From the sequence record NC_048170.1: a stretch of 64,000 nucleotides of DNA. One strand, written 5' to 3'. Both the position numbers and the translations under genes were made by a program. This DNA comes from Escherichia phage vB_EcoM_Goslar. The notes under the pieces were generated by a model. It had not been told where the DNA came from. It saw only the letters and a list, made by a program, of their open reading frames with translations, and did not search any database. This document shows, in pieces, positions 2,471 to 60,150 of this stretch. Every line of letters begins with the position of its first letter. The first letter of the stretch is position 1.

Positions 2471-2887
2471 TTACTTAGCAGCAGGAAATTCCGGCCAATC
2501 GATATTTGGTGCAGCATCGGTATCGACAGCCGACACCGCGTCAACGTAATCCAAAACGGCGTTAAGTCGGGTCGTTTCTTCCGGAGTCAGTTTTCGCCCA
2601 GCCCGTAATTTTAACTGAATAAGATCGATGGAAGCCAGCGAAGAATCAATCAAAGATTGTTTTATCTGTTCTGCCTCGGCGACAAGTTCTTCGTGTTGCC
2701 GCTCGGGTTCCGGAGGCGCGATAAACTCGCCGTTTGAGTATAACCAACCTATTCCAGGTGACACAGCTGCCGTATCGCTAATGCTAACCAGCTGCTGATT
2801 GTCGAATATATCGAGCTCTGCTTCACCATCGTAAACAATCGTGTTTACTACCACTCCATTTTCAATAACAGCGTATAATGTACTCAT
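2471..2887 (-). CDS. tail fiber assembly protein (Tfa-type chaperone)
   Basis: C-terminus ...LNAVLDYVDAVSAVDTDAAPNIDWPEFP resembles the conserved C-terminal motif of lambda Tfa / Mu U-type tail fiber assembly proteins; start chosen at ATG 2887 (MSTLYAVIENG) forming TAATG overlap with fiber stop; ORF track gives 2471..2911. Confidence 0.7.
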   Translation of the reverse strand: MSTLYAVIENGVVVNTIVYDGEAELDIFDNQQLVSISDTAAVSPGIGWLYSNGEFIAPPEPERQHEELVAEAEQIKQSLIDSSLASIDLIQLKLRAGRKLTPEETTRLNAVLDYVDAVSAVDTDAAPNIDWPEFPAAK

Positions 2888-5800: not shown

Positions 5801-6861
5801 AATTCCGTGTTGGCAATCTGTCGACTGCTATCGTTCTCTGCAGCCGTAGGCGCTGCCGGGATACCGGTGAACACAGGGCTATTAAGATCTGCCTTGAGAG
5901 CGATGAGACGTTTAAGTGCGTCGACATCGACTTTCAGGTTTTCCCATCCGATGAGAGAACCACCACTGGCGTTATGATAACGGTTGTACCAGAAGTCGCC
6001 GTTAACGCCAAAAAAGAATATACCTTTCTCTTCGTATTGTGGGCCAGAACTATTTCGTGATGTTTCGATATATTTGATTTCAATAAGACCGCTAAACACC
6101 ACTCCTGGGATTATATTGTTGTTTCCAGCTGACTGTGATACCTGGTAAATCCCCGGGGTTGCGGCTTTAACCCATGTTAAGAATTCTGTTACTCCAGCGG
6201 CACCGCTAAAATTCTTAACGTCGGTAAGTATCGCCCCATAACCGAACATACCGGGTAGAGCCACTCGTTCGCTGGTACGGTCACGAATATCTGTCGCAAC
6301 AACGGGCAATTGTTTACGAACAGCATTAACCGCTTTAGGCGTGGCCGATTTTGTCTCGTCGTCGCTATCGGTTTCATTACTTAGAATAGTTAAACCGCGT
6401 GTAGCAGTAGTTGCATCAGGAAGAAATGCGTTATCCAACACCTTAAGCTGTATTGCACTCGTATTACTAACAACGACATGCACCTGACAGTTAAGAACGC
6501 TGGTTGCGCCTTCGGCAGGCGTAGGCTTATATCTTTCTGGCGCACTGCAGACGGCAATCAGAACACCTTGGTCATCATACAGACCGATCTCACGTACCCA
6601 GAACCCACCTTGACCAGCGGGAATAATACCCTCAACGATAATCCTGGTTGTGCTATCACCATCCGCATGGATATTAGAAACTTCCCCACGATAAACTTCG
6701 TGAACAAGCGCTGTTTGGCTGGCGGTCGGGGTTGGGATCGAGCCGTTACCATCACCAACGGCAAAGTGTGTGATTTTTAGTTTCTCACCGTCGGGAAGTA
6801 ACGCAGCGGTGATACGTTCTGCTCCTTTATCGGTAACTACCGTTATATATGCTGTACTCAT
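2887..6861 (-). CDS. tail fiber protein (1324 aa): P2 gpH-like N-terminal domain, about 11 tandem 40-aa fiber repeats, glycine-rich C-terminal region
   Basis: N-terminus MSTAYITVVTDKGAERITAALLPDGEKLKITHFAVGDGNGSIP...GGFWVREIGLYDDQGVLIAV resembles P2 gpH N-terminus; repeats of the form TARTIGGVSFDGSANIDLPGVNxAGNQNTxGNAATATKLQ; C-terminal GGGGGGGG and GxGG runs. Confidence 0.85.
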   Translation of the reverse strand: MSTAYITVVTDKGAERITAALLPDGEKLKITHFAVGDGNGSIPTPTASQTALVHEVYRGEVSNIHADGDSTTRIIVEGIIPAGQGGFWVREIGLYDDQGVLIAVCSAPERYKPTPAEGATSVLNCQVHVVVSNTSAIQLKVLDNAFLPDATTATRGLTILSNETDSDDETKSATPKAVNAVRKQLPVVATDIRDRTSERVALPGMFGYGAILTDVKNFSGAAGVTEFLTWVKAATPGIYQVSQSAGNNNIIPGVVFSGLIEIKYIETSRNSSGPQYEEKGIFFFGVNGDFWYNRYHNASGGSLIGWENLKVDVDALKRLIALKADLNSPVFTGIPAAPTAAENDSSRQIANTEFVMRAIASLIDSSPEALNTLNELAQALGNDPNFATTVTNALAGKQPLNALLTAWSNLTTDANKLPYFTGRNQIGLTNVTSTGLNLLSKGSVDAVLLYLGLTETIKAAKTALQAGNNGSDIVDKVAFAKTIGLSPETYLKFNGAMATDANLNTFGPVEASVGIWSKPITTNADVAHNFPEANAAGYIEVLPTGQFGGTQRYTVRTGNIYVRSLTASWNGQDGPWGEWLKVGNAAATAAKLATARTIGGVSFDGSANIDLPGVNKAGTQNTSGNAATATKLQTARRIGGVAFDGTADIALPGVNATGNQNTTGNAATATKLKTAVTIGGVSFDGSVSISLPGVNAAGNQDTSGNAGSATKLQTARKIGGVAFDGTTDIALPGVNAAGNQNTTGNAATATKLQTTITIGGVSFDGSASINLPGVNAAGNQSTSGNAGSATKLQTARTIGGVSFDGTANIDLPGVNKAGNQSTSGNAATATKLQTARRINGVAFDGTTDISFSINVLASKGRVTALANATQGSNTGIQMYEAYNNGYPTAYGNIIHLKGATAVGEGEILIGWSGTSGAHAPAYLRSRRDAADSNWSEWAQIYTSKDSIPGVNATGNQNTTGNAASATKLQTARTIGGVSFDGTANISLPGVNTTGNQSTTGNAATATKLQTARTIGGVAFDGTANISLPGVNAAGNQDTTGNAATATKLKTARTIGGVSFDGSANINLPGVNVAGNQNTSGNAATATKLQTARTINGKPFDGTANITLAAKDLGLADSSGYVGRLLNMRVFTSSGTYTPTQGTKRIRVTITGGGGGGGGCQAYSNSETFFGAGGGAGGTVISVITVTAASYSVIIGSGGSGGSGATSGNGGGDSKFASLLTAPGGQGAGKTTVTNTGGGYGGAPATGDIRIPGGDGSDGQAGTIAVGGCGGASYWGGGGRAGVGTAHNGLAPGSGGGGAYDNSYSGTAKPGGRGANGICIIEEFM
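3520..4030. repeat. tandem approx 120-nt coding repeats (array 1, about 4 units) inside tail fiber gene
   Basis: Recurring ttgtcgccgtggcggcattccc... units at about 3600, 3720, 3840, 3960. Confidence 0.7.
4290..5110. repeat. tandem approx 120-nt coding repeats (array 2, about 7 units) inside tail fiber gene
   Basis: Recurring units at about 4370, 4490, 4610, 4730, 4850, 4970, 5090; separated from array 1 by a non-repeat insert. Confidence 0.7.
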
Positions 6862-17716: not shown

Positions 17717-17782
17717 CTTGACATCCTTTTATATTGGATTGGTTGCTAATAATTCAAGGTGAAGCTGATTACTGCATTGCTT

Positions 17783-17806
17783 CACCTAAGTAATATAGCC
17801 GTGAAA
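17783..17806 (-). promoter_or_regulatory. conserved 20-nt intergenic motif (copy 1), candidate promoter element
   Basis: taagtaatatagccgtgaaa at 17787..17806, identical to 46790..46809; both 45-70 nt upstream of a minus-strand start; minus-strand reading TTTCACGGCTATATTACTTA contains TATATT. Confidence 0.35.
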
Positions 17807-35632: not shown

Positions 35633-36652
35633 TTACACCGCCACCTTAGCCTTGATAGCGGGGTGTGATTGATATCCGACGAACACAAAGTCTTCGTAAC
35701 GGTAATCCGTAATACTTTCTGGTTTACGTACGATTGTTAGCTTCGGTAATGGATACGGCTCACGACTAAGTTGTTCTTTAACCTGTTCGAAGTGGTTGTG
35801 ATAGATGTGACAATCTCCACCCGTCCACACGAACTCACCAACGTCCATATTCAGCTGTTGGGCAAGCATGTGTGTCAGCAGTGAATATGATGCGATGTTA
35901 AAGGGAGTCCCTAAAACTGTGTCCTGTGATCTTGCGAGTAGCATGCATGATAAGGCGCGTGTCGGTACGTTGTGTGTATTCAACCAAAGTTCCGTTTCAC
36001 TGTGTCGTACATCATCCGTAACCCACTGGGTTCTTAATACGTCGTTGCGTTGAACATAATCAACACGTTCATCGATCGTGAGCTCGTGGGTATAGAACTG
36101 ATAGAAACTGTGGCATGCGGGAAGCGCCATATCGTCTAAATCACCTACGTTCCATGCGCTAACGATGATCCGTCGAGAATCAGGGTCTTCTTTAAGCTGA
36201 CGCATCACGTTTGCGATTTGGTCGTGGTGTTTAACATACAAGAGATGTTTGACCATACCGGCGTCAACAACACCGCAATACTCATAGCCGCGTTGCATCA
36301 ACTCACGAGTACGTTCTGTATCGTGCGGAACAACCACTTTGTAGTCGATCCATTCCCGCCATTGTTTGCCGTAAATCGGTCCTAGATTCCCTTCTTCGTC
36401 AGCCCATTCATTCCAGATACGAACACCGTTATCTTGAAGATAAGCAACGTTTGTGTCGCCGTTAAGAAACCAGAGCAGTTCGTGGATAACGCTCTTAAGG
36501 TGAATCTTCTTGGTGGTTACCAGCGGGAATCCTTTCTTCAAGTCAAAACGCATCTGACGCCCGAATACGGAACGGGTCCCGGTGCCTGTACGATCAGCTT
36601 TATCGCGACCGTTATCCATGATGTCTTGCAAAAGGTCCAAATACTGTTTCAT
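35633..36652 (-). CDS. thyA: thymidylate synthase (ThyA family) with two insertions
   Basis: [15 protein letters not shown]...[59 protein letters not shown] (catalytic Cys), [25 protein letters not shown]; 339 aa versus about 264 aa for bacterial ThyA. Confidence 0.9.
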
Positions 36653-40266: not shown

Positions 40267-40602
40267 TCATTCCGGTCTATCAGCAGTCAGACCAAGTCCA
40301 GTCAACATCACGTAGTCGTACCAAGCTTTTACTTTTGCTTTCGCCTCATCTAAACTGAATGCGTTGATGTGTGGAAACTCATCGTTGACTGGGAAAGGTA
40401 AATCGCAGTCGTAGCTTGTATAATCCTTCCAACCTTTCCACTCGATAGTTAGAGAACCAAAAACGGTCTCAGCGACAACATGGTTATAGCGACATTCTTC
40501 ACATGGCGAGCGCTCTTCCGACCAAACAAGCTCATGCTGCGCTAAAAGTTGTTGTATGACCGATAACGGTTGCTCTTCATTAAGTTCGATGCTGTCTATC
40601 AT
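40267..40602 (-). CDS. hypothetical protein (111 aa)
   Basis: ORF track. Confidence 0.4.
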   Translation of the reverse strand: MIDSIELNEEQPLSVIQQLLAQHELVWSEERSPCEECRYNHVVAETVFGSLTIEWKGWKDYTSYDCDLPFPVNDEFPHINAFSLDEAKAKVKAWYDYVMLTGLGLTADRPE

Positions 40603-41195
40603 CGCATACCCTCCTTTTCCTTATCGTAATCGCTGCAAATATTGACAAACGCAGTATTATCAGACAGCGTGGCGACCATCTGACGGATTGCGTCCAACGG
40701 TTCAAGTTTAGGATTGATTGATTCACCGGTCAACGCACTTATTGCTCGTGTGATCTCAACCAAATCGACGTTCGGGTCTTTGTCATCAATAATGAGTAAA
40801 CTCTTCGCCGGTTTCTGACGACGTTTGATAATTAACAGATACGTGATGAGATTCTCACGCCAAGCGTCAGAATCCAGATTGCGTATTACGGTTAACGCAC
40901 GACGTTCTTCCGCCCACGATGGTTTCTCACGGATAACAGGCATGTAAGATAACTGCTCAGCAAGCCCTTTCAAACTGACACGGTTGGTGCCACCGGGATG
41001 CTCACTAATCCGCAACATCTCGGCTAACAGACGGACATAGGCGGCTGTTGTCGAAACACCCCGCAGCGGCAGGAACACATTATGTCCTGGAACCCCATCG
41101 TGACTCAGCGGTGCGATATACGCCATGAATCGCCGAATATCATCATCGGTCTGTTCTCCAGCAACGAACTTAAACGCTTCACGTAAAACGCTCAC
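40599..41195 (-). CDS. hypothetical protein (198 aa)
   Basis: ORF track. Confidence 0.45.
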   Translation of the reverse strand: MSVLREAFKFVAGEQTDDDIRRFMAYIAPLSHDGVPGHNVFLPLRGVSTTAAYVRLLAEMLRISEHPGGTNRVSLKGLAEQLSYMPVIREKPSWAEERRALTVIRNLDSDAWRENLITYLLIIKRRQKPAKSLLIIDDKDPNVDLVEITRAISALTGESINPKLEPLDAIRQMVATLSDNTAFVNICSDYDKEKEGMR

Positions 41196-41481
41196 TATGA
41201 AGTCTCCTTAATGTTTCTTGCATACGTAGTCTCTTCGGCAGAAATAGACGTTTGTATAGATCAATTAACAGATAACGCATAACAGAAGCGACCACCAGGT
41301 ATTCACCTTCAGCTTCCGAATAACGTATCATGTTAATTGGGTAATTCAAATAAGAATAAGAAAAGAGATCATCGTTGGTAAGGTGATGATCTTCAAGATA
41401 CTGACGAAACAATTTTGCTAAGGCATCGTACTCCATTCCGTAGTAACACAACGACACCTGTCTTGCAGATAGTCGTTTCAT
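41179..41481 (-). CDS. hypothetical protein (100 aa)
   Basis: ORF track. Confidence 0.4.
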   Translation of the reverse strand: MKRLSARQVSLCYYGMEYDALAKLFRQYLEDHHLTNDDLFSYSYLNYPINMIRYSEAEGEYLVVASVMRYLLIDLYKRLFLPKRLRMQETLRRLHSERFT

Positions 41482-42320
41482 GCTGGGTTACCTTTTAGTT
41501 TTCCACGTATCATGTCGACAACGCGTGAGGGATCAGAAATAACACTGGCGATAAGATGATCGATAGGTAGGTCGAGAATGATATTCTTCAGCTGGAAAGC
41601 CGTATCTTTACGGCGCACGCCGTAGAACACGCCATCTTTAAACACAACCTCGTACGAAATGGGGAGCTGGCTAATAACCGTGTTAGCGTAATCACCCAAC
41701 CACATCGACCCCGCCATCAGATGCGCACAAACCGCATGACTAATACGCACATCTTTGTTCTTCCGGCTAACGTCTTTGGTTTTCGACATGGTAACCAGAA
41801 GCTCACCGATCTTACTCAGCATATCGTCGTATACCCCAAAGAACTTAATCAGTTGTCGGGCACCTAACGATATATATGTTTCTCGTGGTAAGACACAACA
41901 CACCTGCGGTAACGTTCCAACCCCATAGACACAACTGTGTGGTGATAATGGAAGCAAATCAGCAACCGCGTTCTTGATGTTGTTATACTCAACGATATCG
42001 TTGAACGGCGAAAGACCTTTCGTAATCGGTTTATCAATCGCCACATCGAACTCCGCGAACGTCCATGCTGCTTTACGTGGTTCCCCTTTCTGGTACGGTG
42101 GAGCCAGCACCGCGACAACACGAAGTCGATGTTCATGGGTATCACGTAGCTTAAGTTGGATACCCTCACCGTCACCCACACGCACAAGTGAGTAGCGGCT
42201 TGCGCAGTCATCACATACCACCGTTGGTTCGTGTTGACCGTATGCTGCAAGCATCGGTTTACTAAGATCTTTATCGCAGTGTTTACAGCGATGATCCTGT
42301 TCCTGATAACTGATTTTCAC
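41478..42320 (-). CDS. zinc-ribbon-containing protein (280 aa)
   Basis: N-terminal CKHCDK...VVCDDCASRY Cys pairs. Confidence 0.45.
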   Translation of the reverse strand: MKISYQEQDHRCKHCDKDLSKPMLAAYGQHEPTVVCDDCASRYSLVRVGDGEGIQLKLRDTHEHRLRVVAVLAPPYQKGEPRKAAWTFAEFDVAIDKPITKGLSPFNDIVEYNNIKNAVADLLPLSPHSCVYGVGTLPQVCCVLPRETYISLGARQLIKFFGVYDDMLSKIGELLVTMSKTKDVSRKNKDVRISHAVCAHLMAGSMWLGDYANTVISQLPISYEVVFKDGVFYGVRRKDTAFQLKNIILDLPIDHLIASVISDPSRVVDMIRGKLKGNPA

Positions 42321-42335
42321 ACCGAGACCCCTTTG

Positions 42336-43292
42336 TTAATGCAAGACACGATCTGCTGGAATTATCGAGGCATTGCTGTCGGACAGATTCGTCGCTTTAC
42401 GATCAGGACTGAATCGACGAGCGTTCTCTTCATGGTAGTTGACGGGGTTATCCTGTTTTAACAGTTCCATTGCCTCATCAAACGTTAGTTCCCGAAATCC
42501 TCTTGGATAGAGGAACAGGGGTTCATCAACATCCAACCCTTTAACAAACCCGTGCGACAACCAGACGCTACCATCAGCACTGTAAAGAACCGGCTCAACG
42601 TCATAATCCAAGACGTATTGATACCAATAATTAAACAGTTGGGCAATCCACCGATTACGTAATAAGTAATCGATCATAACCGCACTACGCACGCTGTGGC
42701 ACCAGCCGATCTTGCCATCAACTTTCTGCAACAACGTACCCTCATTTGCTTGATGAATAACCGCATTAAATAACCACGCGAGATCGGTTGCGAAAAGTGC
42801 GGCTTCTTGAATATCGCTAATGTAACGCACGGGTATCGTCAAATGTGTACGGTAATGCGACATCGCCTCTTCGTAGTTGTCTCCTTCGATGCAGAGAGTC
42901 CCGTTTGGTGACAGATGCCCCTGATTCAACGACTGACCAATATAAAGATCAGCGATCGCGTTAATATATTCGACGGTGCCCAAGGTTAACTCAGACATAA
43001 AACAATCGACATCAACAGCCATCGATGTACTGGAAACAAACGGATTGGTTGGGTGAGTTGTATTAGAGAAAATAATCGACCAAACCGCTTCATGTTTTTC
43101 ATCCGACGGCAAAAACGAAATATGGCGTTCTGCGCTATTATCGACAACAAATACCTTTACGGTTTTCAAACAGCTAGTACAAACATAGCACGTGTTCGGC
43201 AACGGCATATCCGAAAACATATCGTAACGAATCGATGCCAGCGAAATGTCATATCCGCAATGAGGGCATGTCGTATCAATAAGCGTTTTCAT
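42336..43292 (-). CDS. zinc-ribbon-containing protein (318 aa)
   Basis: N-terminal CPHCGY...CYVCTSC Cys pairs. Confidence 0.45.
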   Translation of the reverse strand: MKTLIDTTCPHCGYDISLASIRYDMFSDMPLPNTCYVCTSCLKTVKVFVVDNSAERHISFLPSDEKHEAVWSIIFSNTTHPTNPFVSSTSMAVDVDCFMSELTLGTVEYINAIADLYIGQSLNQGHLSPNGTLCIEGDNYEEAMSHYRTHLTIPVRYISDIQEAALFATDLAWLFNAVIHQANEGTLLQKVDGKIGWCHSVRSAVMIDYLLRNRWIAQLFNYWYQYVLDYDVEPVLYSADGSVWLSHGFVKGLDVDEPLFLYPRGFRELTFDEAMELLKQDNPVNYHEENARRFSPDRKATNLSDSNASIIPADRVLH

Positions 43293-43555
43293 TATTGAAT
43301 TCCTTTTGATAAGAATAACTGAATATCGGTAAACTGTTCTTCAGGAACATCGTCAGCGGCCGTTAGAACCTTAGGACCGTGTTCATTGAGGTAAGCTTCC
43401 CGTAGACAATGGTGACGTCGATTGGCCTCCTGGAACTCAGTGTCCGTCATGTAAACCAGCGTAAACTTCGAACGTTTATTCGGATTATATCTCTTATTAC
43501 GTTTCTTTGGTTTCTTCGCCATAATAGCCTCGTGAAGGTGGATGGATACACCCAT
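43292..43555 (-). CDS. hypothetical protein (87 aa)
   Basis: ORF track. Confidence 0.4.
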   Translation of the reverse strand: MGVSIHLHEAIMAKKPKKRNKRYNPNKRSKFTLVYMTDTEFQEANRRHHCLREAYLNEHGPKVLTAADDVPEEQFTDIQLFLSKGIQ

Positions 43556-43570
43556 CCACCTTCCTCCATG

Positions 43571-44092
43571 TTAAAGTGCGTTCAATTCTTCAGGTGTACG
43601 TACAGTACGCGTGTTGGGATCAACCATTGCTGGCACGCCCGCTGGGCATTTACGGACATCGATTCGCATCTCTGGTTCGATCGGACGAACGCGATAAGTT
43701 TTACCGTCGTCGGTTAACACCGAAATGGTCAACGCCTGATTCAATTCACTAACGAAGTTCACCAAACGCTGTTGTCCACCCTTCGACCAGAAGTTAAGAT
43801 CGGTTTCTCCATTGAAATAACTGATTCCATCAGCGGTTCCAATCGTGATTTTAACGATACCCGGATAGTCACGAAGAAGAGGTGCCTGATAACCTTCATC
43901 TTCCGTATCCAGTTTTACCCACGCGCCTCCCGTAGACAAACAGTTAACTTCCAGGGCGGTTGGTGCGCTGACTTCCGCCGATGACCAGGTATACATCGTG
44001 CCCAGTTTAGCGTGTCCGGTTTCCAGTTCGCTATAATCCCAAGCATGTGCTGATGCCGTAATAAATAAAGCCGCAAGAAACAACTTTTTCAT
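43571..44092 (-). CDS. secreted protein (173 aa, signal peptide)
   Basis: MKKLFLAALFITASAHA-WDYS. Confidence 0.5.
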   Translation of the reverse strand: MKKLFLAALFITASAHAWDYSELETGHAKLGTMYTWSSAEVSAPTALEVNCLSTGGAWVKLDTEDEGYQAPLLRDYPGIVKITIGTADGISYFNGETDLNFWSKGGQQRLVNFVSELNQALTISVLTDDGKTYRVRPIEPEMRIDVRKCPAGVPAMVDPNTRTVRTPEELNAL

Positions 44093-44147
44093 TCTTTTCG
44101 ATTCCTATTAAAAGTGACCGATTTCTGTGGTCGAGATTGCTAATAAA

Positions 44148-44609
44148 TTAATTCCGGTTTTGTTTCCGTATTGCACGGTTACGTTTACGTTCTTGGTCTT
44201 TGATGGCACCAAGAAACTTCTTTAATTCTGACGGTTCGAGCGTACCCTCACGTACCACACCGTTTTGTTCGATATGGTACGACCAATAACCAACTTCAGC
44301 CGTTAAGGATAACGTTGTCGGCTGCTCATCGGGTAACGATCTGGGTGAGAAAATAAAGAGTAATTCAAAAGGCGTTTCTCGGCTGATGGTGGGACGGATA
44401 CTAACGTCAAGCCCCTCCCATCGCTGAGGTTTAAATATTCCTCCAGCCGCGACGATTGTCTCCGAGCGTTGTTCTACAAGCTCGGCTAATTCACGATCGT
44501 CATTGAAATAAATATCGTGAAGGATATCCGTATCGATAAAAAACCCGCGATCCGAATCGTGACGAACAATGGAATTCTTCATTCTAACGCCTTTGTTGTT
44601 TGTTTTCAT
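44148..44609 (-). CDS. hypothetical protein (153 aa)
   Basis: ORF track. Confidence 0.4.
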   Translation of the reverse strand: MKTNNKGVRMKNSIVRHDSDRGFFIDTDILHDIYFNDDRELAELVEQRSETIVAAGGIFKPQRWEGLDVSIRPTISRETPFELLFIFSPRSLPDEQPTTLSLTAEVGYWSYHIEQNGVVREGTLEPSELKKFLGAIKDQERKRNRAIRKQNRN

Positions 44610-44656
44610 GTCCTATACGAACATGAAAAACCGTTAATTTTTACCATAGTCGTGTG

Positions 44657-44932
44657 TTAAAAATCCACACCGCGACCCGTCATCGACGAAGGAACCGCGC
44701 GATAATAGAAGTAGATGTAATGGTCACGATGGCTAAAATAGTTTTTGCAAGCATAGAACTCTCCAGATCCAATGAATGATTTAATACGTGTAACTTGAGG
44801 GTGTCGTGCGATTAACGCCCGTATAACGATTTCCATTTGGTGTGCGCTCAAGCCTGGTCGAGCGGCAACATGATAATGAAGCTCCCTAAGAAATTGTTTC
44901 CATGGGTCGGGGTGTGTCGATGATCGAGACAT
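44657..44932 (-). CDS. hypothetical protein (91 aa)
   Basis: ORF track. Confidence 0.4.
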   Translation of the reverse strand: MSRSSTHPDPWKQFLRELHYHVAARPGLSAHQMEIVIRALIARHPQVTRIKSFIGSGEFYACKNYFSHRDHYIYFYYRAVPSSMTGRGVDF

Positions 44933-44961: not shown

Positions 44962-44988
44962 CAGCATAAACCCTCCCCGAAGGGAGGG
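44962..44988 (-). terminator. terminator-like hairpin CCCTCCC-(UUCG loop)-GGGAGGG followed by UUUAUG on minus strand
   Basis: Inverted repeat 44971..44988 immediately downstream of 44999..45556. Confidence 0.55.
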
Positions 44989-44998
44989 CGGTTGGCGA

Positions 44999-45556
44999 TT
45001 ACTCCATCCATACTTCTTCGTCGTAATGATTCTCTATCGCATTACGCCAAAAACGCACGGTGTCCAAACTAATCGGTGCGTAAAAATGTTGGTCAACGCC
45101 AACGTTAAGTCCGTTGGCCTTCGCTAACATACAGCGATGAATATGCCCGAATAGATTAAAGTAACCTGGGTTTCTTTCGCTGGGCTTATGGCATAGCCAG
45201 TAGGATTCGTCATTGCTAATCGGCAACACCAACGGGTGTTCATAAACAGCAGCAAACCCCATACCGAGCAGTTTATCACGCCACGCTTCGAAGCTTAATC
45301 CTGTCGCTTTGTATGCGTCTTCGTCCCAATTCCCCATTACCAATTGAACCTGGATATCAGAACGAATGGCTTCCACGAACTCAAACTTACCCCAATCACC
45401 TAAATGCCATAACACACTGTTCTTTGGAAGCTTGTTGATGGCTTTCAGCATATGCTGGTTCATATCGGCGACGCTTGCGAACGGACGGCGTGAATACGTC
45501 CATGTACGCTCGCTATCAAAATGGGTATCCGACATAAAGAAGATGGGTGGGGTCAT
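44999..45556 (-). CDS. metallophosphoesterase (calcineurin-like phosphatase family)
   Basis: Ordered motifs SDTHF (D-x-H), GDWG, GNWDE, GHIH. Confidence 0.75.
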   Translation of the reverse strand: MTPPIFFMSDTHFDSERTWTYSRRPFASVADMNQHMLKAINKLPKNSVLWHLGDWGKFEFVEAIRSDIQVQLVMGNWDEDAYKATGLSFEAWRDKLLGMGFAAVYEHPLVLPISNDESYWLCHKPSERNPGYFNLFGHIHRCMLAKANGLNVGVDQHFYAPISLDTVRFWRNAIENHYDEEVWME

Positions 45557-46035
45557 TGATCTAATTGCTCCAGAAATGCACGACCCGATTTACTTGCTTT
45601 TAAATGCTGTTCTGCGGAAGTAAGCAGAAGATCGGTTGGCGTGTATGCAGCGCTACCTTTCCACTCTGTTTTCAGTTTACCCTCTTCGATACTGAACTGA
45701 ATCAGTTGTTGGGTGCCGAAGTTAAGCGTGTTCGTCGCAGCGCTAAATACACCACCCATCATGCTGTAACCAAAGACTTTCACGTCTTCCGTGTAGAAGT
45801 CATTGTCGATCAATTTGTTCTGGAGTTCGAGTTGGTCGGACGGCAGCAATCCCCCATCAAAGACGCTTAAAATACCCGCCAGGCGATACATACTCACCTT
45901 TCCTGAAACGCCCACCACGTAATTGCCGTACAGTGTCTCTTCCAGTTTAGCAACAACGGTGCGATCGTCGGAGGTTTTCATCGAAACCTCAATACCATCA
46001 CCAACTTCTGTTAACGTTAAATCAACGATACTCAT
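45553..46035 (-). CDS. hypothetical protein (160 aa)
   Basis: ORF track; 4-nt overlap with phosphoesterase start. Confidence 0.45.
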   Translation of the reverse strand: MSIVDLTLTEVGDGIEVSMKTSDDRTVVAKLEETLYGNYVVGVSGKVSMYRLAGILSVFDGGLLPSDQLELQNKLIDNDFYTEDVKVFGYSMMGGVFSAATNTLNFGTQQLIQFSIEEGKLKTEWKGSAAYTPTDLLLTSAEQHLKASKSGRAFLEQLDQ

Positions 46036-46057
46036 TCATTATTCTCCGCTTTCATGA

Positions 46058-46744
46058 TTAACACATGATTTCACCATGTTTCTTTTCAACATACGTATAA
46101 ACGTCATCCAAATAAGCAATGAGTTTATCACGATCCGCACAGAGCGATTTAATCACCGCAATCTCTTTCATATAAAGCTGCTGACCTAACGCCGGATATG
46201 TAATCCACGCGTAGCCGTCAGGCGCAAATTTAGAAATAAGATAATCAGCGGTTTCCTGTAATGCGAACTCTTTACTCATCTGGCCGTAACGATGTTCGAT
46301 TGCGCGGATACCAAAACGTTCGCTATCGAGACGGCCCATATCTGCCAGACGAAGCACCTGAGAAGCAACCGAACTACGTGGACCAGAGTACGAGGCACGA
46401 TGTTCAGCAATAAGTACGCGTATCTCCTCGATGTCCTCCGGTGTGAAAATATGCTGCTCGTTACGAAGCAGGATAACCGACGCACGAATACCCCCGATAA
46501 GGTGGTGGTATGTTCTGTTTTCGTGGCAAGCGATATCATGCATAAAAGCAGCGGTTAATAGACGACGACGTTCCGTGGGTCTGATGATCCCAACCACATC
46601 AGCAAGTTCATTTGCCAGTTCAACAACAGCAAGCACATGTTCTTCTTGATGTGCAAGATCGTTCTTCCGAATATTTTCAATTACTTCGGTGCGTGTTTCC
46701 GGAGATAAGAAATTTAAACAATCCAACGAATATAAAGATTTCAT
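46058..46744 (-). CDS. HD-domain phosphohydrolase-like protein
   Basis: LAHQEEHVLAVVELANE ... AAFMHDIACHE (H...H...HD pattern). Confidence 0.55.
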   Translation of the reverse strand: MKSLYSLDCLNFLSPETRTEVIENIRKNDLAHQEEHVLAVVELANELADVVGIIRPTERRRLLTAAFMHDIACHENRTYHHLIGGIRASVILLRNEQHIFTPEDIEEIRVLIAEHRASYSGPRSSVASQVLRLADMGRLDSERFGIRAIEHRYGQMSKEFALQETADYLISKFAPDGYAWITYPALGQQLYMKEIAVIKSLCADRDKLIAYLDDVYTYVEKKHGEIMC

Positions 46745-46785
46745 CGCACGTACCTCTTTGAATCTATTAATAAATTTTCTTTACT

Positions 46786-46809
46786 CACGTAAGTAATATA
46801 GCCGTGAAA
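46786..46809 (-). promoter_or_regulatory. conserved 20-nt intergenic motif (copy 2), candidate promoter element
   Basis: taagtaatatagccgtgaaa at 46790..46809, identical to 17787..17806; about 45 nt upstream of start of 46058..46744. Confidence 0.35.
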
Positions 46810-46888
46810 GGATTTGTGTTGGTCCGTCTCGATGCCCATCGTATTTTATGGATTGTCGAATGACGTCATTTTAAGGGACATCCCCGGC

Positions 46889-46923
46889 CTCCTCCCCAGG
46901 AAAGGTGTGGGGAGGAGTTTTTA
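46889..46923 (+). promoter_or_regulatory. terminator-like hairpin plus T5 run on plus strand, upstream of helicase gene (possible attenuator or boundary element)
   Basis: ctcctcccc-aggaaaggtgt-ggggaggag followed by ttttt; lies in divergent intergenic region. Confidence 0.4.
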
Positions 46924-51953: not shown

Positions 51954-53528
51954 TTACAATTCAAAATCTTCATCGATAACACGCTGGGTAAGCACCTTGT
52001 CGCTGAAGAACTCCACCTTGCGCTGATGGTATTTACGGTGCGCTTCGATAGATGTACATACCAGATACCAGAACGTTGGTGTCATTCCTTCGAACTTCCC
52101 TTTCAGCTGACGTAGGCGTCCCAATACCTGAATGTTACCGGTTCGTGACCCCATCGCTAACGTCATGAACGTCATCACCAAGTCAGGGAGGTCGATACCT
52201 GTACCTGCCGATTTCACCGTCGTAACGCTGATATCGTTATCCAACAAGACCATGAAATCTTCTTCAGCAGTATAAGGACCAATCTCTAACTCAGGAATAC
52301 GTTCACTGAGATAATGCGATAACGACTTACACATATCAACGGTTGCACAATACACCAGCATCTTCATGCCTTCCTGATACTGGTTCATGAAACCTTTGAT
52401 GATAACGGTATAGATAAAGTTGAAATAGGCGAGTTTGAGTTGCTTGTTCTTCATGATAGACTGTTCGAATATCGTGTGAGAATAAGAACCCCCAAAGCCT
52501 TTGTATCTGACTTTATCTGTACTGCGTAATCGATACGTTACCGCATTTACCGCAATGTATTTCTTGTATTCGCATTTCGCATAACGTGCTTCTTTCGGAT
52601 ACATCAAATACAACATCCGTTCGATGAACGGATCGTCGGACACTGCCGTTGCTGACAGATAGATGATTTCCGGAATATTCGCGTAACACTTCACTTTGAA
52701 CAAGAAATGCAATGCTTCGTGACATTCATCATGGATTAACAACCCAATGCCTGTTTTCTCCCAGAACTCGACAGGATGGAAAACATAAGGTGCGACACAG
52801 TTGTTCTTTTCATAATCGGTTATGTATCTCTGAAACATGTTCAGCGAGAATAACGCAATTTTGAAATCCAGCTCACCTTGTTCCACCAACGTCTGGAATT
52901 CCAGCATGCTGTAACGAGGAATGTCTGGATGTGGTGGGTCAGATTGAGCTGTGCCACGTATCTCGATAACATCGCCCGGTTCCATACCGAAGAAACTTAG
53001 CAGTGAGCTACGCCAACCAGGCATGTATCTCGGTGACAGGATAATACCCGTCCGTACACCGCGTCGGAAGGTGATCTCCTGCGACATGGCTGTTTTACCA
53101 GACCCCGTGCCTGCGGTGTTTAAGCTCATTCTGAAGGGGGTATCCTTACCCCCGTCCATGTACTCCAACCATTCTTGTTGATCTTCACGCCACGGAAACT
53201 TCCATTTCTTTACGAACTCCACTTCCTTACCTGGCACTGGATCGTGATAAACGATTTCCAACCACTCTTTTCGGATTCCTCGAGAGAAGATAAAATCCAA
53301 AAACGATTTCAACTGTTCGCGGAGTAAGTATACCTCGCTATAATCGCTTCTCGCTGCGGCATACGTGTTTATGGTATCGGTAACCATTCTCCGTGTACGA
53401 GGGTCACGCCGTTTCCTCAGATGCAAACAACGGTCTCGAAGGTAATGGCCGATAAGATGGGCAAATCGAAGTCCGTATCCGCTCAGCCTCATGCCATGCG
53501 AGAAGACGTCGATACGAGCTAACTTCAT
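51954..53528 (-). CDS. superfamily II DExH-box helicase
   Basis: Motif I GTGSGKT, motif II LIHDECHE, motif III LSATAV, motif V AGTGIDLPD, motif VI QVLGRLRQ. Confidence 0.65.
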   Translation of the reverse strand: MKLARIDVFSHGMRLSGYGLRFAHLIGHYLRDRCLHLRKRRDPRTRRMVTDTINTYAAARSDYSEVYLLREQLKSFLDFIFSRGIRKEWLEIVYHDPVPGKEVEFVKKWKFPWREDQQEWLEYMDGGKDTPFRMSLNTAGTGSGKTAMSQEITFRRGVRTGIILSPRYMPGWRSSLLSFFGMEPGDVIEIRGTAQSDPPHPDIPRYSMLEFQTLVEQGELDFKIALFSLNMFQRYITDYEKNNCVAPYVFHPVEFWEKTGIGLLIHDECHEALHFLFKVKCYANIPEIIYLSATAVSDDPFIERMLYLMYPKEARYAKCEYKKYIAVNAVTYRLRSTDKVRYKGFGGSYSHTIFEQSIMKNKQLKLAYFNFIYTVIIKGFMNQYQEGMKMLVYCATVDMCKSLSHYLSERIPELEIGPYTAEEDFMVLLDNDISVTTVKSAGTGIDLPDLVMTFMTLAMGSRTGNIQVLGRLRQLKGKFEGMTPTFWYLVCTSIEAHRKYHQRKVEFFSDKVLTQRVIDEDFEL

Positions 53529-55531
53529 AACGTGATTACATCCTCCGGTTTAGGTTCTTTACGCGGTAAAAGCATGTAGTCGATCGGATGATCCGGCTTC
53601 ATGGTTGGGATATAACTGTTCGGGTTTTGGAACGCATCCAGTTGCTCTTGGTGAGCGAACTTCATACTCAAGGAGCGCATGTTCATGTTCTTCTTGAAGG
53701 TACTGAAGTATCGTGTTGTTCCCTGTTTCGGCATGCGATAATCTTTCGTGTGTGGTGAACGAATCATGCTGGCGTAGAGAATAACATCGAGATGCGAAAG
53801 GTTCATTCGCAGACGCTGGGCACACAGACGATGCCAATAGTACAGCACGTTTGCAACTTCTTCCGGTGTCGCTTCGTCTTCCGAAAGGAATCCGGCACTG
53901 AAAGAACCTTTCCCGAATTTGAATTCACGTTCGATTTCTTTTGCGTATTCCATCATGTTTTTGTGGATTAACGGCATCTGGAATAACGTACGTGAATTGT
54001 CCCAATGTTTCAAGTCGAAAATCACAATCCCGTCAGACGTCACTTCCCAGCTATGGCGTTTAAGATAACGGATAAACGCTTTACTCGGGACAACGGGACG
54101 TCCACAGAAATCGAAATTGACTTTGAGCTTACGGTAGCTTTCATCTTTCCTGTCGTAAATCTCCATATCACAAAGCGTCATGTTAAACAGGCGTTGCGGT
54201 ATCAGCGAACTGATTTCTTCCGCTTCCGCTACATCGTACAACATGTTCGCAAGACCTAACTTCATCTTAATCAGCACGTGTTTACCTTTCAGCTCACGTG
54301 CGAGTTTGATGTCGTTCATATTCTGGCTGTAGCGAAGGATATGTTGATATTCCGGTGGGATTGGTGCTGTGGATACCGTTGACGAACCATCATGGTGTTT
54401 GGTAGAAAGAATGTTCTGCGTTACCTGTTGCGAACAGGTACGCGCTGCGCCATCGCCGACATTATCGGTTAGTGCGAAGTTATGACTTAATTCACCGTAA
54501 CACGTCGTACATACCCCAGCAGGATCGGGATGATGACAATAGTTAACGGAGCGCATACGCACTGTGGTGCCGATCAATTCTTTCATGTGTGGTTGTATCG
54601 CTACCAACGAACCGTCATCGCGAATAATGAATCGACCGTGGAAGCCACGCAGGTCGGTCTCATCACGGATTGGCATCGGGATGGTCTCTTTACTACCACA
54701 ATCTCCAGGATGGAGTCGTTGTACAACCGCTGTCGCTATCTGAAGTTCACGACCGAAATATTCAGACTTCTTGATCTGCTCTTTGTTGAACAGCAACGAC
54801 TTCGCCGCAGAACGACTTTCTTTCAAGCTGTCGGGAAGAGAGATCAAACCTGCCGCGTACGACCGCATTACTGGATCACGGAATATCTCGGAGTTAATAT
54901 CGGTCAAGAATCCACGCATCCCAATACACTGCAGCACCTGCCCAATCGAAACGTGTTCGGTTCGTACCGCACGCGCAATAGGGTTTGCGTGTAACGTTTT
55001 ATCGGTGCTCAGTACCTTGGTCAGTTTCTTGTATGCGCTTTCGATACCTTCACGGGTGGGTTCCGCTTCGGCGATGATTTTCTTAACTTCAGGATGTACG
55101 GTAATCTGATAAAAATCATCCGCGCAAATAGTCGTTACGTATTCCTCCAGCGCATACGTAAAGAAGTTATATACATTGTTAAACATATCGAACAATGCTT
55201 TCCAGAGAACCTCACGATTCTCTTGTGGATAAGCATACATGCATTGACGATACGCGGCGCTTTGCAACGCAACCGACGAACCAGCAGTAAACTTGCGTTT
55301 ATCGACCAGGTTCTCTTTTGTCAATGGTGTCTCAGGATACATGCGATGCACAGACCAGTGCATGTAACTAAAGAAAATGCGTCGCGCACGCAATTCATGA
55401 ACGCCATCGTCCATCTCGATATATACACGGTCATTAGGCTGTGCCCACTCGAATACTTCATCAACCGGCCAGTGCATAAGCTCGCGTGCCCTCACACGAC
55501 GTTTCGTGGTGGTCGTCTGTGTTATAGTCAT
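53525..55531 (-). CDS. multisubunit RNA polymerase beta-prime-like protein (C-terminal half homolog)
   Basis: VRMRSVNYCHHPDPAGVCTTCYGEL...AARTCSQQVTQNILSTKHHDG parallels E. coli beta-prime [22 protein letters not shown]...[22 protein letters not shown]; upstream IGQVLQCIGMRGFL parallels LNVLQYFISTHGAR; no NADFDGD motif, consistent with a split subunit. Confidence 0.55.
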   Translation of the reverse strand: MTITQTTTTKRRVRARELMHWPVDEVFEWAQPNDRVYIEMDDGVHELRARRIFFSYMHWSVHRMYPETPLTKENLVDKRKFTAGSSVALQSAAYRQCMYAYPQENREVLWKALFDMFNNVYNFFTYALEEYVTTICADDFYQITVHPEVKKIIAEAEPTREGIESAYKKLTKVLSTDKTLHANPIARAVRTEHVSIGQVLQCIGMRGFLTDINSEIFRDPVMRSYAAGLISLPDSLKESRSAAKSLLFNKEQIKKSEYFGRELQIATAVVQRLHPGDCGSKETIPMPIRDETDLRGFHGRFIIRDDGSLVAIQPHMKELIGTTVRMRSVNYCHHPDPAGVCTTCYGELSHNFALTDNVGDGAARTCSQQVTQNILSTKHHDGSSTVSTAPIPPEYQHILRYSQNMNDIKLARELKGKHVLIKMKLGLANMLYDVAEAEEISSLIPQRLFNMTLCDMEIYDRKDESYRKLKVNFDFCGRPVVPSKAFIRYLKRHSWEVTSDGIVIFDLKHWDNSRTLFQMPLIHKNMMEYAKEIEREFKFGKGSFSAGFLSEDEATPEEVANVLYYWHRLCAQRLRMNLSHLDVILYASMIRSPHTKDYRMPKQGTTRYFSTFKKNMNMRSLSMKFAHQEQLDAFQNPNSYIPTMKPDHPIDYMLLPRKEPKPEDVITL

Positions 55532-57596: not shown

Positions 57597-59765
57597 TTAG
57601 CTTTCGCAGTCATCTGCGTCGATGATTTGTCCGCCAGCAACGTTCAGCTGATGATACAGAATCCTCAACGCACGGTTGCCACCAATGGGATACTTCTCGA
57701 AGTTGGTTGCAATAGGAATCGCTGACGGCTTATCGGTCGCATAGATACTTTCAGTGATGCTATCCACCTGTTTTGGATTGTTCGCATAATCCATAAAGAC
57801 GCTTGCGAACCATCCGCCAGCAAAGGCGGTAACTTCGCGATGTTCAGATTCGCCACAGTAACGAGTTGGTTGCTCTTTACCCGGAGAACTGTATTTATCG
57901 CTATTACTGAGTTTCGACGGTAATCCATGCGCTTGCAATTTAGGAATACCCACAGCCGACCAATCGTTCGCCGTCTTCTCCAACATCATGATGTACGTGT
58001 CACCGATCGCAATATCGTTCTTGGTTGTCCGCCACTGCCCAGAACGCCCACGGTATCGTACAGGACCTTTCTTCAACGGGAACTCACGAATCAGATTCTC
58101 CATACGTTCTGAACCTGCTGCGATACTGTCCGTCGGGATATAAACTTCCGTACCGTGGCGTTGTACATACCGTAAATGATCCCATTTATCCTCATCCGTG
58201 ATACAGTATTTTTCAACAACCTGTTCCACGAATTCAGGACTGACGATATAGTAGTAACGCATTAGTGTGTTCCAAGCGGTCTCCAGATCGCCTGCATCCA
58301 TCACTGGTTTCAGTTCACGCATGATCTGATCGCCAACACCGTTGATGTAAGGTGCATTAACACGACTTAAACTCATCCTTTTGATTACCGTGCTATCGTC
58401 AAACATAAAGTCTGCAACGTTACCCCATTGGTCAACCGGCATCTCATCATCTTCCATGATGTCGGTTACGACGAATTTATCACCCGCCATACCAGTGAAT
58501 TTAAACCCGATACCTGGAACAACGTCGTACGTGTACGTGATGGTCACACGCCAATCATCGAGATTCTCTTTGCGGTAATCGCGGGTCGGTAACACATGAC
58601 GTAGCTGTCCATTAGGATTGCGGATATCAATACCATGTTCAGCATCAGCCAGGTTCAACCACCACATCACCGTTTGATGATGACGTATCGGCGTACCAAC
58701 GCGTTCACGTTCATACTTACGAACAGCATCCTGAATTCGGGTGTAAAGCAAACCGATTGCGTTCTCGTATTTCAGGAATTGACGATACGGAGGACGCATC
58801 TTCTCTTCCATCATAATCGCACGCTCGCGGGCTTGACGTCCAGAACGACGATGCCGGTCGCTGACAACATCGATATCCGTTACACGCGCATTCGGTTCAG
58901 CGTAAGTGAGGTCATCGTAAACATAATCCACACGCTGAAGATTACACGTCATCATGTCAACAACGCTGAGGATAGGATCTATTTCGCGTGTTGCTGCAAG
59001 TAACCCATCTTTACGAATACGCTCACCGTTCTCGGGTATTGCTTGATATACCTCATCATCGCCGTAGAGATTGATTGGGTATCGCGATTTACCTGATGTG
59101 ATTGTTCGCTTCTCAATGCCGGTACTGGTGAAATGTTTCAATACACCACGACGGGCAACACCACCATCCTCGATACACTGATAGAAGCTACCGAAACACA
59201 CTTTACAATCGCGACCGTAACCCCACTCGCGTGTTTCTTGATTGATCGCTGGGCTTTCCATCAAACGAGAATATCGCGGTACGATCTGGCCTCGACGGAG
59301 GGAATGGAACAAGTTGGTTGGTCGAAAACGGAAACCGTACTGCTGATGCATGATGTGATGCTCAGGCACTTCAAGCAAGCGTAGTTCGTGGCGGTTACCA
59401 TCCTCTTGGTTTTCATACAGCACGTAATGCATCGTGTTTGTTTTGATGCTGTTTGCTGTATGCCCCGGTTGGAAACGTGGGATGATATCTATGATGCGAG
59501 ATTCGACTGGAAACTCTACTGACCAAGTGTTCTGTCCGTACTGGTATTCAATCCCCGTCGTTAGTCGGGACGGTTTCGCATCTTTGATAACCAACGCTTG
59601 GCTAAGATGTCCACCAAACATCGCAGCGCGCTGTGCTGAGTTATAATGCAATAGCCCGTTAAGTCCAGTCCCTACGCCAGTATACTCCTGTTTAATGGGA
59701 ATGATTTTACCTTCAGCGATTGCCTGCTTCACAGATTCATAAAGAGGTTTTTCTTTATAATGCAT
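57597..59765 (-). CDS. multisubunit RNA polymerase beta-like protein (C-terminal half homolog)
   Basis: FKFTGMAGDKFVVTDIMEDDEMPVDQWGNVADFMFDDSTVIKRMSLSRV parallels E. coli beta [47 protein letters not shown]; also YIMMLEK versus YMYMLKL and a C-terminal segment parallel to GQRFGEMEVWALEAYGA; start placed at ATG 59765 preceded by AGGAAG (ORF track 57597..59930). Confidence 0.6.
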   Translation of the reverse strand: MHYKEKPLYESVKQAIAEGKIIPIKQEYTGVGTGLNGLLHYNSAQRAAMFGGHLSQALVIKDAKPSRLTTGIEYQYGQNTWSVEFPVESRIIDIIPRFQPGHTANSIKTNTMHYVLYENQEDGNRHELRLLEVPEHHIMHQQYGFRFRPTNLFHSLRRGQIVPRYSRLMESPAINQETREWGYGRDCKVCFGSFYQCIEDGGVARRGVLKHFTSTGIEKRTITSGKSRYPINLYGDDEVYQAIPENGERIRKDGLLAATREIDPILSVVDMMTCNLQRVDYVYDDLTYAEPNARVTDIDVVSDRHRRSGRQARERAIMMEEKMRPPYRQFLKYENAIGLLYTRIQDAVRKYERERVGTPIRHHQTVMWWLNLADAEHGIDIRNPNGQLRHVLPTRDYRKENLDDWRVTITYTYDVVPGIGFKFTGMAGDKFVVTDIMEDDEMPVDQWGNVADFMFDDSTVIKRMSLSRVNAPYINGVGDQIMRELKPVMDAGDLETAWNTLMRYYYIVSPEFVEQVVEKYCITDEDKWDHLRYVQRHGTEVYIPTDSIAAGSERMENLIREFPLKKGPVRYRGRSGQWRTTKNDIAIGDTYIMMLEKTANDWSAVGIPKLQAHGLPSKLSNSDKYSSPGKEQPTRYCGESEHREVTAFAGGWFASVFMDYANNPKQVDSITESIYATDKPSAIPIATNFEKYPIGGNRALRILYHQLNVAGGQIIDADDCES

Positions 59766-59796
59766 AGGACTTCCTATTATCGAATTGAGGTACGTC

Positions 59797-60150
59797 ATGT
59801 CTAACACGCCCCTGAACGACTTTCTTAAGACAAACCCCGATGACCTCATCCACGATCTTGATTTCAGGAACGTTGTTGAGATGCATCTGGAATATTTCAA
59901 AAATGCCGGACTGGTCTCTACGATAGACATACCACCCGAACGCGCCTACGAATTCGATGGTAACTTTTATGGATTGTGTCGTGTTCTGCTCGGCGAGGGT
60001 AGCGAACCAATGCACTGGATCACCCTGAGACTCAATGGTTATCGCGACCCTACGGAATACACCGCCGATGTTCTAACCATGAAGATTGTCGATACAAGCG
60101 CAATCAACACATTAAAACAACAGTACCGCACAATCCACTACAGCGCTTAA
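59797..60150 (+). CDS. hypothetical protein (117 aa), lone plus-strand gene
   Basis: ORF track 59785..60150; ATG 59797 preceded by GAGG; followed by hairpin. Confidence 0.4.
   Translation: MSNTPLNDFLKTNPDDLIHDLDFRNVVEMHLEYFKNAGLVSTIDIPPERAYEFDGNFYGLCRVLLGEGSEPMHWITLRLNGYRDPTEYTADVLTMKIVDTSAINTLKQQYRTIHYSA

Follow-up and report, generated by a model that had tools for sequence, protein, structure and literature searches.

Small metallophosphoesterases (MPEs) of the aq_1665/COG4186 subfamily and HD-domain proteins resembling YedJ are widespread in large phages, and YedJ itself is an Escherichia coli protein. The COG4186 MPEs of large phages are annotated as 'predicted phosphoesterases' and include no member with a known substrate. 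The solved structures that represent the HD subfamily, YedJ (PDB 3GW7) and a Thermotogales protein (PDB 2PQ7), are likewise structural-genomics proteins without assigned function, and a search of the literature on COG4186 and YedJ found no functional data. One clear activity would annotate about 90 phage records per family. Here we describe a block of three minus-strand genes (44999-46744) that encodes one member of each subfamily, on either side of an orphan gene, in a 64,000-nucleotide stretch of DNA from Escherichia phage vB_EcoM_Goslar (NC_048170.1). This whole stretch is referred to below as the window.

Characterized enzymes offer several points of comparison. The study of Streptomyces PenF, a nucleoside 5'-monophosphatase, aligns YedJ with PenF and with the Bacillus subtilis nucleotide pyrophosphohydrolase YpgQ (PDB 5DQW). 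In PenF, R140, which lies 12 residues after D128, is essential, and an H-x3-K pair (H174/K178) contributes to activity (PMC11592144). An MPE with the five superfamily motifs is expressed early by cluster A mycobacteriophages (A10ZJ24 gp48, Bxb1 gp47) and has been proposed to function in counter-defence (PMC12287305). Acb1, Apyc1, AcrIII-1 and HD-GYP proteins are phosphodiesterases that destroy cyclic-nucleotide signals, a function that a first reading of the locus (hereafter the original prediction) had proposed for the hydrolases of the block.

Two conserved hydrolases flank an orphan protein

The block comprises, in the order of transcription, a gene for a 228-residue HD-domain phosphohydrolase (46058-46744), a gene for a 160-residue orphan protein (45553-46035) and a gene for a 185-residue MPE (44999-45556), all on the minus strand. 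A 22-nucleotide spacer with a GGAG ribosome-binding site inside it separates the HD stop codon from the orphan start codon, and the orphan stop and MPE start codons share an ATGA (45553-45556). The original prediction of two metal-dependent phosphohydrolases flanking a 160-residue unknown, with a 4-nucleotide overlap at one junction, is thus borne out by open reading frame (ORF) coordinates, Pfam and PHROG matches and motif alignment. That prediction had made its standing depend on motif conservation under careful alignment, and the ligands proved to be conserved across 37 MPE and 21 HD homologues.

Near-identical copies of the block are present in a 237.5-kb IMG/VR contig and in contigs of Salmonella and E. 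coli sequencing projects. Comparison with relatives of about 97% identity yielded ratios of nonsynonymous to synonymous substitution (dN/dS) of 0.03-0.04 for the HD gene, 0.10-0.12 for the orphan gene and 0.04-0.06 for the MPE gene. These values (0.03-0.12 across the block) reflect purifying selection and thus mark all three as real, constrained genes.

The MPE matches the Metallophos_2 family (PF12850) with an E value of 3.3e-8 and 34.1 bits (cutoff 27), and the 'phosphoesterase' family phrog_547 with an E value of 1e-30. It has the attributes of the calcineurin-like superfamily, namely the beta-alpha-beta-alpha-beta sandwich fold and all five motifs (D10-T-H12, G53-D54-W-G, G75-N76-W77-D78, H123 and G137-H138-I-H140). 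Alignment of the 37 homologues shows D10, H12, G53-D54, H123, G137-H138 and H140 to be invariant and N76 to be nearly invariant, and the non-ligand histidine of motif III is replaced by tryptophan in the window MPE and by tyrosine in the MPE family. The similarity to aq_1665/COG4186 proteins is clearly above that to other MPE subfamilies, which places the enzyme in this group. Relative to Aquifex aeolicus aq_1665 (PDB 1XM7), which has GNHD, the window MPE reads GNWD and most phage members read GNYE, and the phage family has NVGVD as an additional invariant motif, along with a C-terminal helix, FYRNAIENHYDE, that is conserved. The one match at the DNA level was to the Yoloswag MPE gene, over 140 nucleotides at 72% identity.

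The HD protein matches PF01966 with an E value of 5.6e-8 and 33.5 bits (cutoff 22), and phrog_3921, a family annotated as 'unknown function', with an E value of 3e-30. Homologues detected by tblastn reside in 91 jumbo-phage records at no more than 34% identity, and the phages concerned infect Erwinia, Aeromonas, Vibrio, Klebsiella, Serratia, Salmonella and other hosts. The H...HD...D metal-binding signature of the superfamily is present together with additional histidines. Residues H36, H69-D70, H80, H115 and D135 are invariant in the 21 homologues, as are D29, H32, C73, R77, R116, S118 and R147.

Searched against solved structures, the HD family profile ranked 2PQ7 (9.6e-11) and YedJ 3GW7 (5.5e-10) far ahead of the others. 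The segment D29-x-A31-H32-x3-H36 aligns with both proteins, which assigns the family to the YedJ/2PQ7-like clade, and this D-x-A-H-x3-H motif is followed in each by the shared HD, H-R-x-S and A-D-R motifs. In 2PQ7, an arginine 12 residues past the last aspartate aligns with the invariant R147 that follows D135. The similarity to YedJ and 2PQ7 is confined to roughly residues 28-166 of the HD protein, and the jumbo-phage family differs from both in having its own C-terminal motif, K-F-G-x-x-G-Y-x-W-x-x-Y-P.

YpgQ and PenF share the H...HD...D metal site with this family. R147 is spaced after D135 as R140 is after D128 in PenF, a match by spacing only, and most members of the family possess an H-x3-K pair (H168/K172) like that of PenF, whereas the window protein has tyrosine rather than histidine at position 168. 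The published alignment of YedJ with YpgQ and PenF, the spacing of R147 and the H-x3-K pair of most members point to a nucleotide substrate for the HD enzyme, though as only a lead.

The block resembles an early transcription unit of a jumbo phage

The gene content of the window identifies it as DNA of a phiKZ-like jumbo phage of enterobacteria. This assignment follows from two split multisubunit RNA polymerase (RNAP) beta-type genes (53525-55531 and 57597-59930) and from the SNF2/DEAD helicase gene that adjoins the block in divergent orientation, orthologues of which are found in 203 jumbo-phage records at no more than 39% identity. The window additionally encodes tail proteins, an NAD-dependent DNA ligase, a thymidylate synthase and an exonuclease. 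Megablast comparison of the DNA with 50,697 INPHARED phage records, complete E. coli genomes and PLSDB plasmids returned no match.

The block is preceded by a promoter motif of phiKZ type, TTTCACGGCTATATTACTTACGTGA (46785-46809, minus strand), whose 3' end lies about 40 nucleotides upstream of the HD start codon. The motif agrees with predicted promoters published for phage 201phi2-1 (WTTTRARR_BTATATTACDWHDGTG) and phiKZ (TATATTAC) (PMC7058600, Table 2). Conserved AT-rich motifs of this kind are a mark of early operons transcribed by the virion RNAP (PMC7598289), and the 5' untranslated regions of phiKZ transcripts measure 31-40 nucleotides (PMC8244752), with which the HD leader of about 40 nucleotides is compatible. 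The block thus has, ahead of its first gene, the kind of conserved AT-rich promoter motif, centered near -10, that characterizes phiKZ-like early units. A scan for sigma-70 promoters gave fewer matches than shuffled sequence and was uninformative.

In the form TTTCA-N3-CTAYATWAC-N4-GTG, the motif lies upstream of HD homologues in two diverged relatives (L009 and L013) as well as in Erwinia phage RisingSun and Salmonella phage SA002, so its position ahead of the HD gene is conserved across five lineages. Loci of Vibrio jumbo phages carry it too, again on the coding strand. The HD family is found commonly among jumbo phages, and several lineages have it as the first gene after a promoter of this type. 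The window contains just two copies of the motif (46785-46809 and 17782-17806), both of which are intergenic and on the minus, coding strand. These copies are near-identical (TTTCACGGCTATATTACTTA[C/G]GTGA) and could be used for mapping the early regulon of this phage group.

At the opposite end of the block, a terminator-like hairpin (44970-44989, minus strand) begins 10 nucleotides past the MPE stop codon. It consists of an 8-bp GC-rich stem and a UUCG loop (GCCCUCCC-UUCG-GGGAGGGU), followed by a short U-tract, UUAU. Its predicted RNA fold has a free energy of -18.9 kcal/mol (z = -2.7), and 0 of 200 shuffled sequences were equally stable. The equivalent hairpin of L009 is predicted at -24.9 kcal/mol (z = -5.0) and is directly followed by a new copy of the promoter motif, an arrangement that delimits the HD, orphan and MPE genes as one unit in this relative. 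No new promoter follows the hairpin in the window, and transcription may therefore continue to some extent into the orphan genes that come next. From the promoter motif through the HD, 160-residue and MPE genes to the hairpin, the block looks like a single transcription unit, one that is probably expressed early in infection.

The arrangement is confined to one phage clade

The HD-orphan-MPE trio is kept in three lineages, in which the proteins have diverged to as little as 35-51% identity. For the L009 lineage, identities to the window proteins are 51% for the MPE, 40% for the HD protein and 39% for the middle protein. The whole region is syntenic in the trio-bearing relatives, so the order of the three genes is no specific sign of coupling. 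Nor is the ATGA overlap kept, since 20 nucleotides separate the orphan and MPE genes in L009 and 10 nucleotides separate them in L013.

Loci from other phages provide a broader view of how the two hydrolase genes are distributed. At 20 other jumbo-phage HD loci, neither an MPE gene nor the orphan gene lies within 6 kb, and the three-gene arrangement is likewise missing from about 90 other MPE loci. Clustering of the 1232 neighbor proteins encoded at 91 MPE loci, which represent 56 lineages, revealed no neighbor family present in more than 3 lineages, and the MPE gene is thus a stand-alone, mobile gene of large phages. The adjacency of HD, orphan and MPE genes is, on this comparison of loci, confined to one phage clade. 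The suggestion that such HD/MPE pairs form a recurrent phage unit did not hold beyond this clade.

The orphan protein follows the same distribution. It is acidic (isoelectric point 4.5), with no match in Pfam, PHROG, NCBIfam, PADLOC or PDB and no signal peptide or detectable domain. A tblastn search against phages recovered no homologues at E <= 1, and a word-index search recovered close copies only. An exhaustive phmmer search of 1.8 billion representative sequences returned close copies and two relatives of 39% and 35% identity, each of which is flanked by HD and MPE genes downstream of a divergent helicase gene. The orphan therefore appears, from these searches, to be restricted to one phage clade. 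An AlphaFold2 model built on 5 sequences had a predicted local distance difference test score of 49 and was unusable. Two low-complexity repeat proteins that were also among the phmmer matches were regarded as spurious. Small proteins encoded downstream of the HD gene in RisingSun and SA002 were considered as diverged orphans and rejected, there being no similarity, and the SA002 'putative phosphohydrolase' MGA_70 was rejected as an MPE relative because it is unrelated.

Pfam scans of 20 immediate neighbors of MPE relatives produced a heterogeneous list. Those with an annotation tend towards nucleotide and cofactor metabolism and include ThyX (twice), NUDIX, MazG, dCMP deaminase, GTP cyclohydrolase, dNMP kinase, NAPRTase, a HAD hydrolase and an IMPDH-like gene. 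One MPE relative (P0067; L040, 4001-4966) is a 321-residue fusion of a nucleoside-2-deoxyribosyltransferase-like domain (Nuc_deoxyri_tr2) with an MPE domain. Another locus (L042, 4001-6475) carries a run of MPE, second MPE, NUDIX, YacG and MazG genes downstream of ThyX. The fusion and the run may hint at substrates of COG4186 MPEs. On a 218-kb metagenomic phage contig (L038, 4255-7567), an MPE gene of this family overlaps a Thg1-like gene, for a tRNA 3'-5' polymerase, by 4 nucleotides near a gene for a CCA-adding enzyme, an arrangement that may represent a tRNA-repair cluster.

Candidate roles of the two enzymes

The reading that we favor, tentatively and with slightly less than even confidence, is that the block encodes two independent early hydrolases of free-nucleotide phosphate esters or anhydrides within one transcription unit. 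The HD protein and the MPE would both be catalytically intact binuclear-metal hydrolases produced from one early transcript. They would function independently of each other, as is suggested by HD loci without an MPE or orphan gene, by the lack of a recurring MPE neighbor and by the unconserved overlap. By cleaving phosphate esters or anhydrides of free nucleotides, the enzymes would contribute to turnover of (deoxy)nucleoside triphosphates and monophosphates ((d)NTPs and (d)NMPs) or to nucleotide-pool sanitation soon after infection. This activity would run alongside that of the phage genes for dTMP synthesis and DNA replication, as the phage takes over the nucleotide pool. Genes for the thymidylate synthase, the NAD-dependent DNA ligase and the exonuclease belong to the same leftward gene run as the block, and L009 encodes a dCTP deaminase/dUTPase in the equivalent stretch of this run. 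The proposal that the enzymes dephosphorylate nucleotides is plausible in view of the alignment of YedJ with YpgQ and PenF, the neighbors of MPE relatives and the Nuc_deoxyri_tr2 fusion.

Several observations weigh against this assignment. Neither subfamily has a characterized member, and the proposed substrate class draws on second-order relatives and on gene neighborhoods. The HD family profile recovered neither YpgQ nor PenF at E <= 1, and the PenF arginine is matched by spacing only. The MPE neighborhoods are heterogeneous and include nucleic-acid functions as well, namely RNase H, Thg1 together with a CCA-adding enzyme, RNA ligase, RecA and gyrase. Early timing is deduced from the phiKZ-type promoter motif. 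Finally, retention of the trio at 35-40% identity could reflect functional coupling of the genes and not synteny.

In a different reading, the MPE, possibly with the HD enzyme, would process nucleic-acid ends or act as a nuclease. It could remove a 3'-phosphate or a 2',3'-cyclic phosphate, for example in repair of tRNA cut by a host anticodon nuclease, or it could act on host or phage DNA. We regard this as unlikely. An RNA ligase or polynucleotide kinase was not found among the scanned ORFs of the window, and the PdeM family model (TIGR04123) gives the MPE only 20.8 bits (cutoff 150), from a match limited to 30 residues around GHxH. The mycobacteriophage MPE, which acts on DNA and in Bxb1 (gp47) is encoded beside replication genes, is not specifically related to the window MPE: hhalign assigned the pair a probability of 0.9% (E = 0.064) over 17 columns around GHxH only, and the mycobacteriophage protein has 255 residues compared with 185 here. 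On the HD side, the characterized enzymes aligned with YedJ, YpgQ and PenF, use free nucleotides.

A coupling of the three genes would follow if HD, orphan and MPE formed an obligate three-component system in which the orphan, as a subunit that confers specificity, regulates or inhibits, links the activities of the two enzymes. One version of this idea is sequential hydrolysis, with the HD enzyme converting NTP to NMP and the MPE then converting NMP to nucleoside. The same order, adjacency and single promoter-to-terminator unit recur in three lineages at 35-51% identity, and the orphan was never seen without HD and MPE genes in the exhaustive phmmer search. In the window, the ATGA couples orphan and MPE translationally, and MPE relatives repeatedly adjoin other phosphohydrolases (second MPE, NUDIX, MazG, HAD and NinI phosphatase). 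Set against this, synteny extends over the entire region and the order is not specific to the trio, the overlap is not kept in the relatives, either enzyme family can be found on its own in many other phages, and the orphan lacks a usable structure or homology. We therefore find an obligate system very unlikely. That the orphan regulates or partners the MPE is no more than a guess.

A further reading, suggested in the original prediction, is that one or both enzymes would break down second messengers of immunity or stress in the early phase of infection. Candidate signals are the cyclic nucleotides of CBASS, Pycsar and type III CRISPR systems, ADP-ribose derivatives of Thoeris, and (p)ppGpp. 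The folds of Acb1 (2H), Apyc1 (metallo-beta-lactamase, MBL) and AcrIII-1 (DUF1874) differ from those of the window enzymes, and 2H, MBL and DUF1874 folds or domains are absent from both proteins. HD-GYP proteins share with the HD protein only the generic H..HD segment: the HD-GYP motif HHExxDGxGYP is absent from its sequence, PF13487 is unmatched (only PF01966 matches), and the HD profile aligned with the HD-GYP structures 4MCW, 3TM8 and 5Z7C at E values of 0.08-0.9 over that segment only. Matches of the HD profile to cGAMP phosphodiesterase structures were insignificant. Degradation of cyclic nucleotides or ppGpp, as first proposed, thus finds no support in an HD-GYP signature or in similarity to Acb1, Apyc1 or ring nucleases. 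The suggested relevance to host defenses fares no better, since there are no PADLOC hits and no specific relation to the characterized anti-defense phage MPE. Erasure of defense signals therefore strikes us as quite improbable. We would give as little credence as to the obligate system to the more elaborate possibility of a dedicated early counter-defense cassette, in which the hydrolases would destroy a nucleotide signal of host immunity or stress, or the precursor of such a signal, and the orphan would act as a sponge, confer specificity as a subunit or inhibit a host sensor.

The consequences differ among these readings. If the preferred reading of independent hydrolases of ordinary nucleotides is correct, models of nucleotide-pool takeover in giant phages would be refined. 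An immune-signal substrate would define a new enzyme class for phage counter-defense, and a counter-defense cassette would supply the first physiological substrates for the COG4186 MPE and YedJ-like HD families. What is new here is that the block can be placed in a delimited transcription unit, probably an early one, of a phiKZ-like jumbo phage. Both enzymes are further members of known, uncharacterized subfamilies, and their arrangement is lineage-specific. We thus view the finding as sound annotation rather than discovery, and as valuable chiefly for the delimited unit and as a test case with two small proteins, a first substrate for which would carry over to many phage genomes.

Other features near the block and in the window

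The intergenic region between the divergent helicase and HD genes contains a second conserved sequence block, TCATTCGACAAYCC(C)ATAAAAT (46843-46863, minus strand), which is common to the corresponding regions of three lineages (the window, L009 and L013). Read as its reverse complement, this block includes TTTATGG, a possible TATG-type promoter for late or middle expression of the helicase. Just upstream of the helicase gene, a terminator-like hairpin on the plus strand (46889-46922), CTCCTCCCC...GGGGAGGAG followed by T5, has no plus-strand gene ahead of it and folds marginally better than shuffled sequences (z = -1.7).

The helicase itself probably starts at the ATG at 46953 (693 residues, as called in relatives) rather than at the GTG at 46905. 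Its orthologue in a related phage (L009 and L010, 1857-4991) has 1044 residues and includes a LAGLIDADG_3 domain, that is, an intein or homing-endonuclease insertion, and the window helicase of about 693 residues is without it.

Beyond the MPE gene, the leftward run continues to an Rv2179c-like exonuclease gene through minus-strand orphan ORFs of 91, 153, 173, 87, 318, 280, 100 and 198 residues (40599-44932). Scans of seven of these eight (all except the 100-residue ORF) gave no Pfam or significant PHROG matches. Their homologues are confined to the L009 lineage (23-67% identity), where the 91- and 153-residue ORFs lack counterparts. The 173-residue orphan (43571-44092, minus strand), which is 43% identical to its L009-lineage homologue, has a signal-peptide-like N-terminus, MKKLFLAALFITASAHA, and is possibly a phage protein destined for secretion or the periplasm.

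Farther along the window, the thymidylate synthase (35633-36652, minus strand; PF00303, E = 9e-114) has 339 residues compared with 266 positions in the family model and thus carries about 70 residues of insertions. A 1324-residue tail-fiber protein (2887-6861, minus strand) shows repeated internal matches to many tail-fiber PHROGs, with up to 12 stretches per family.

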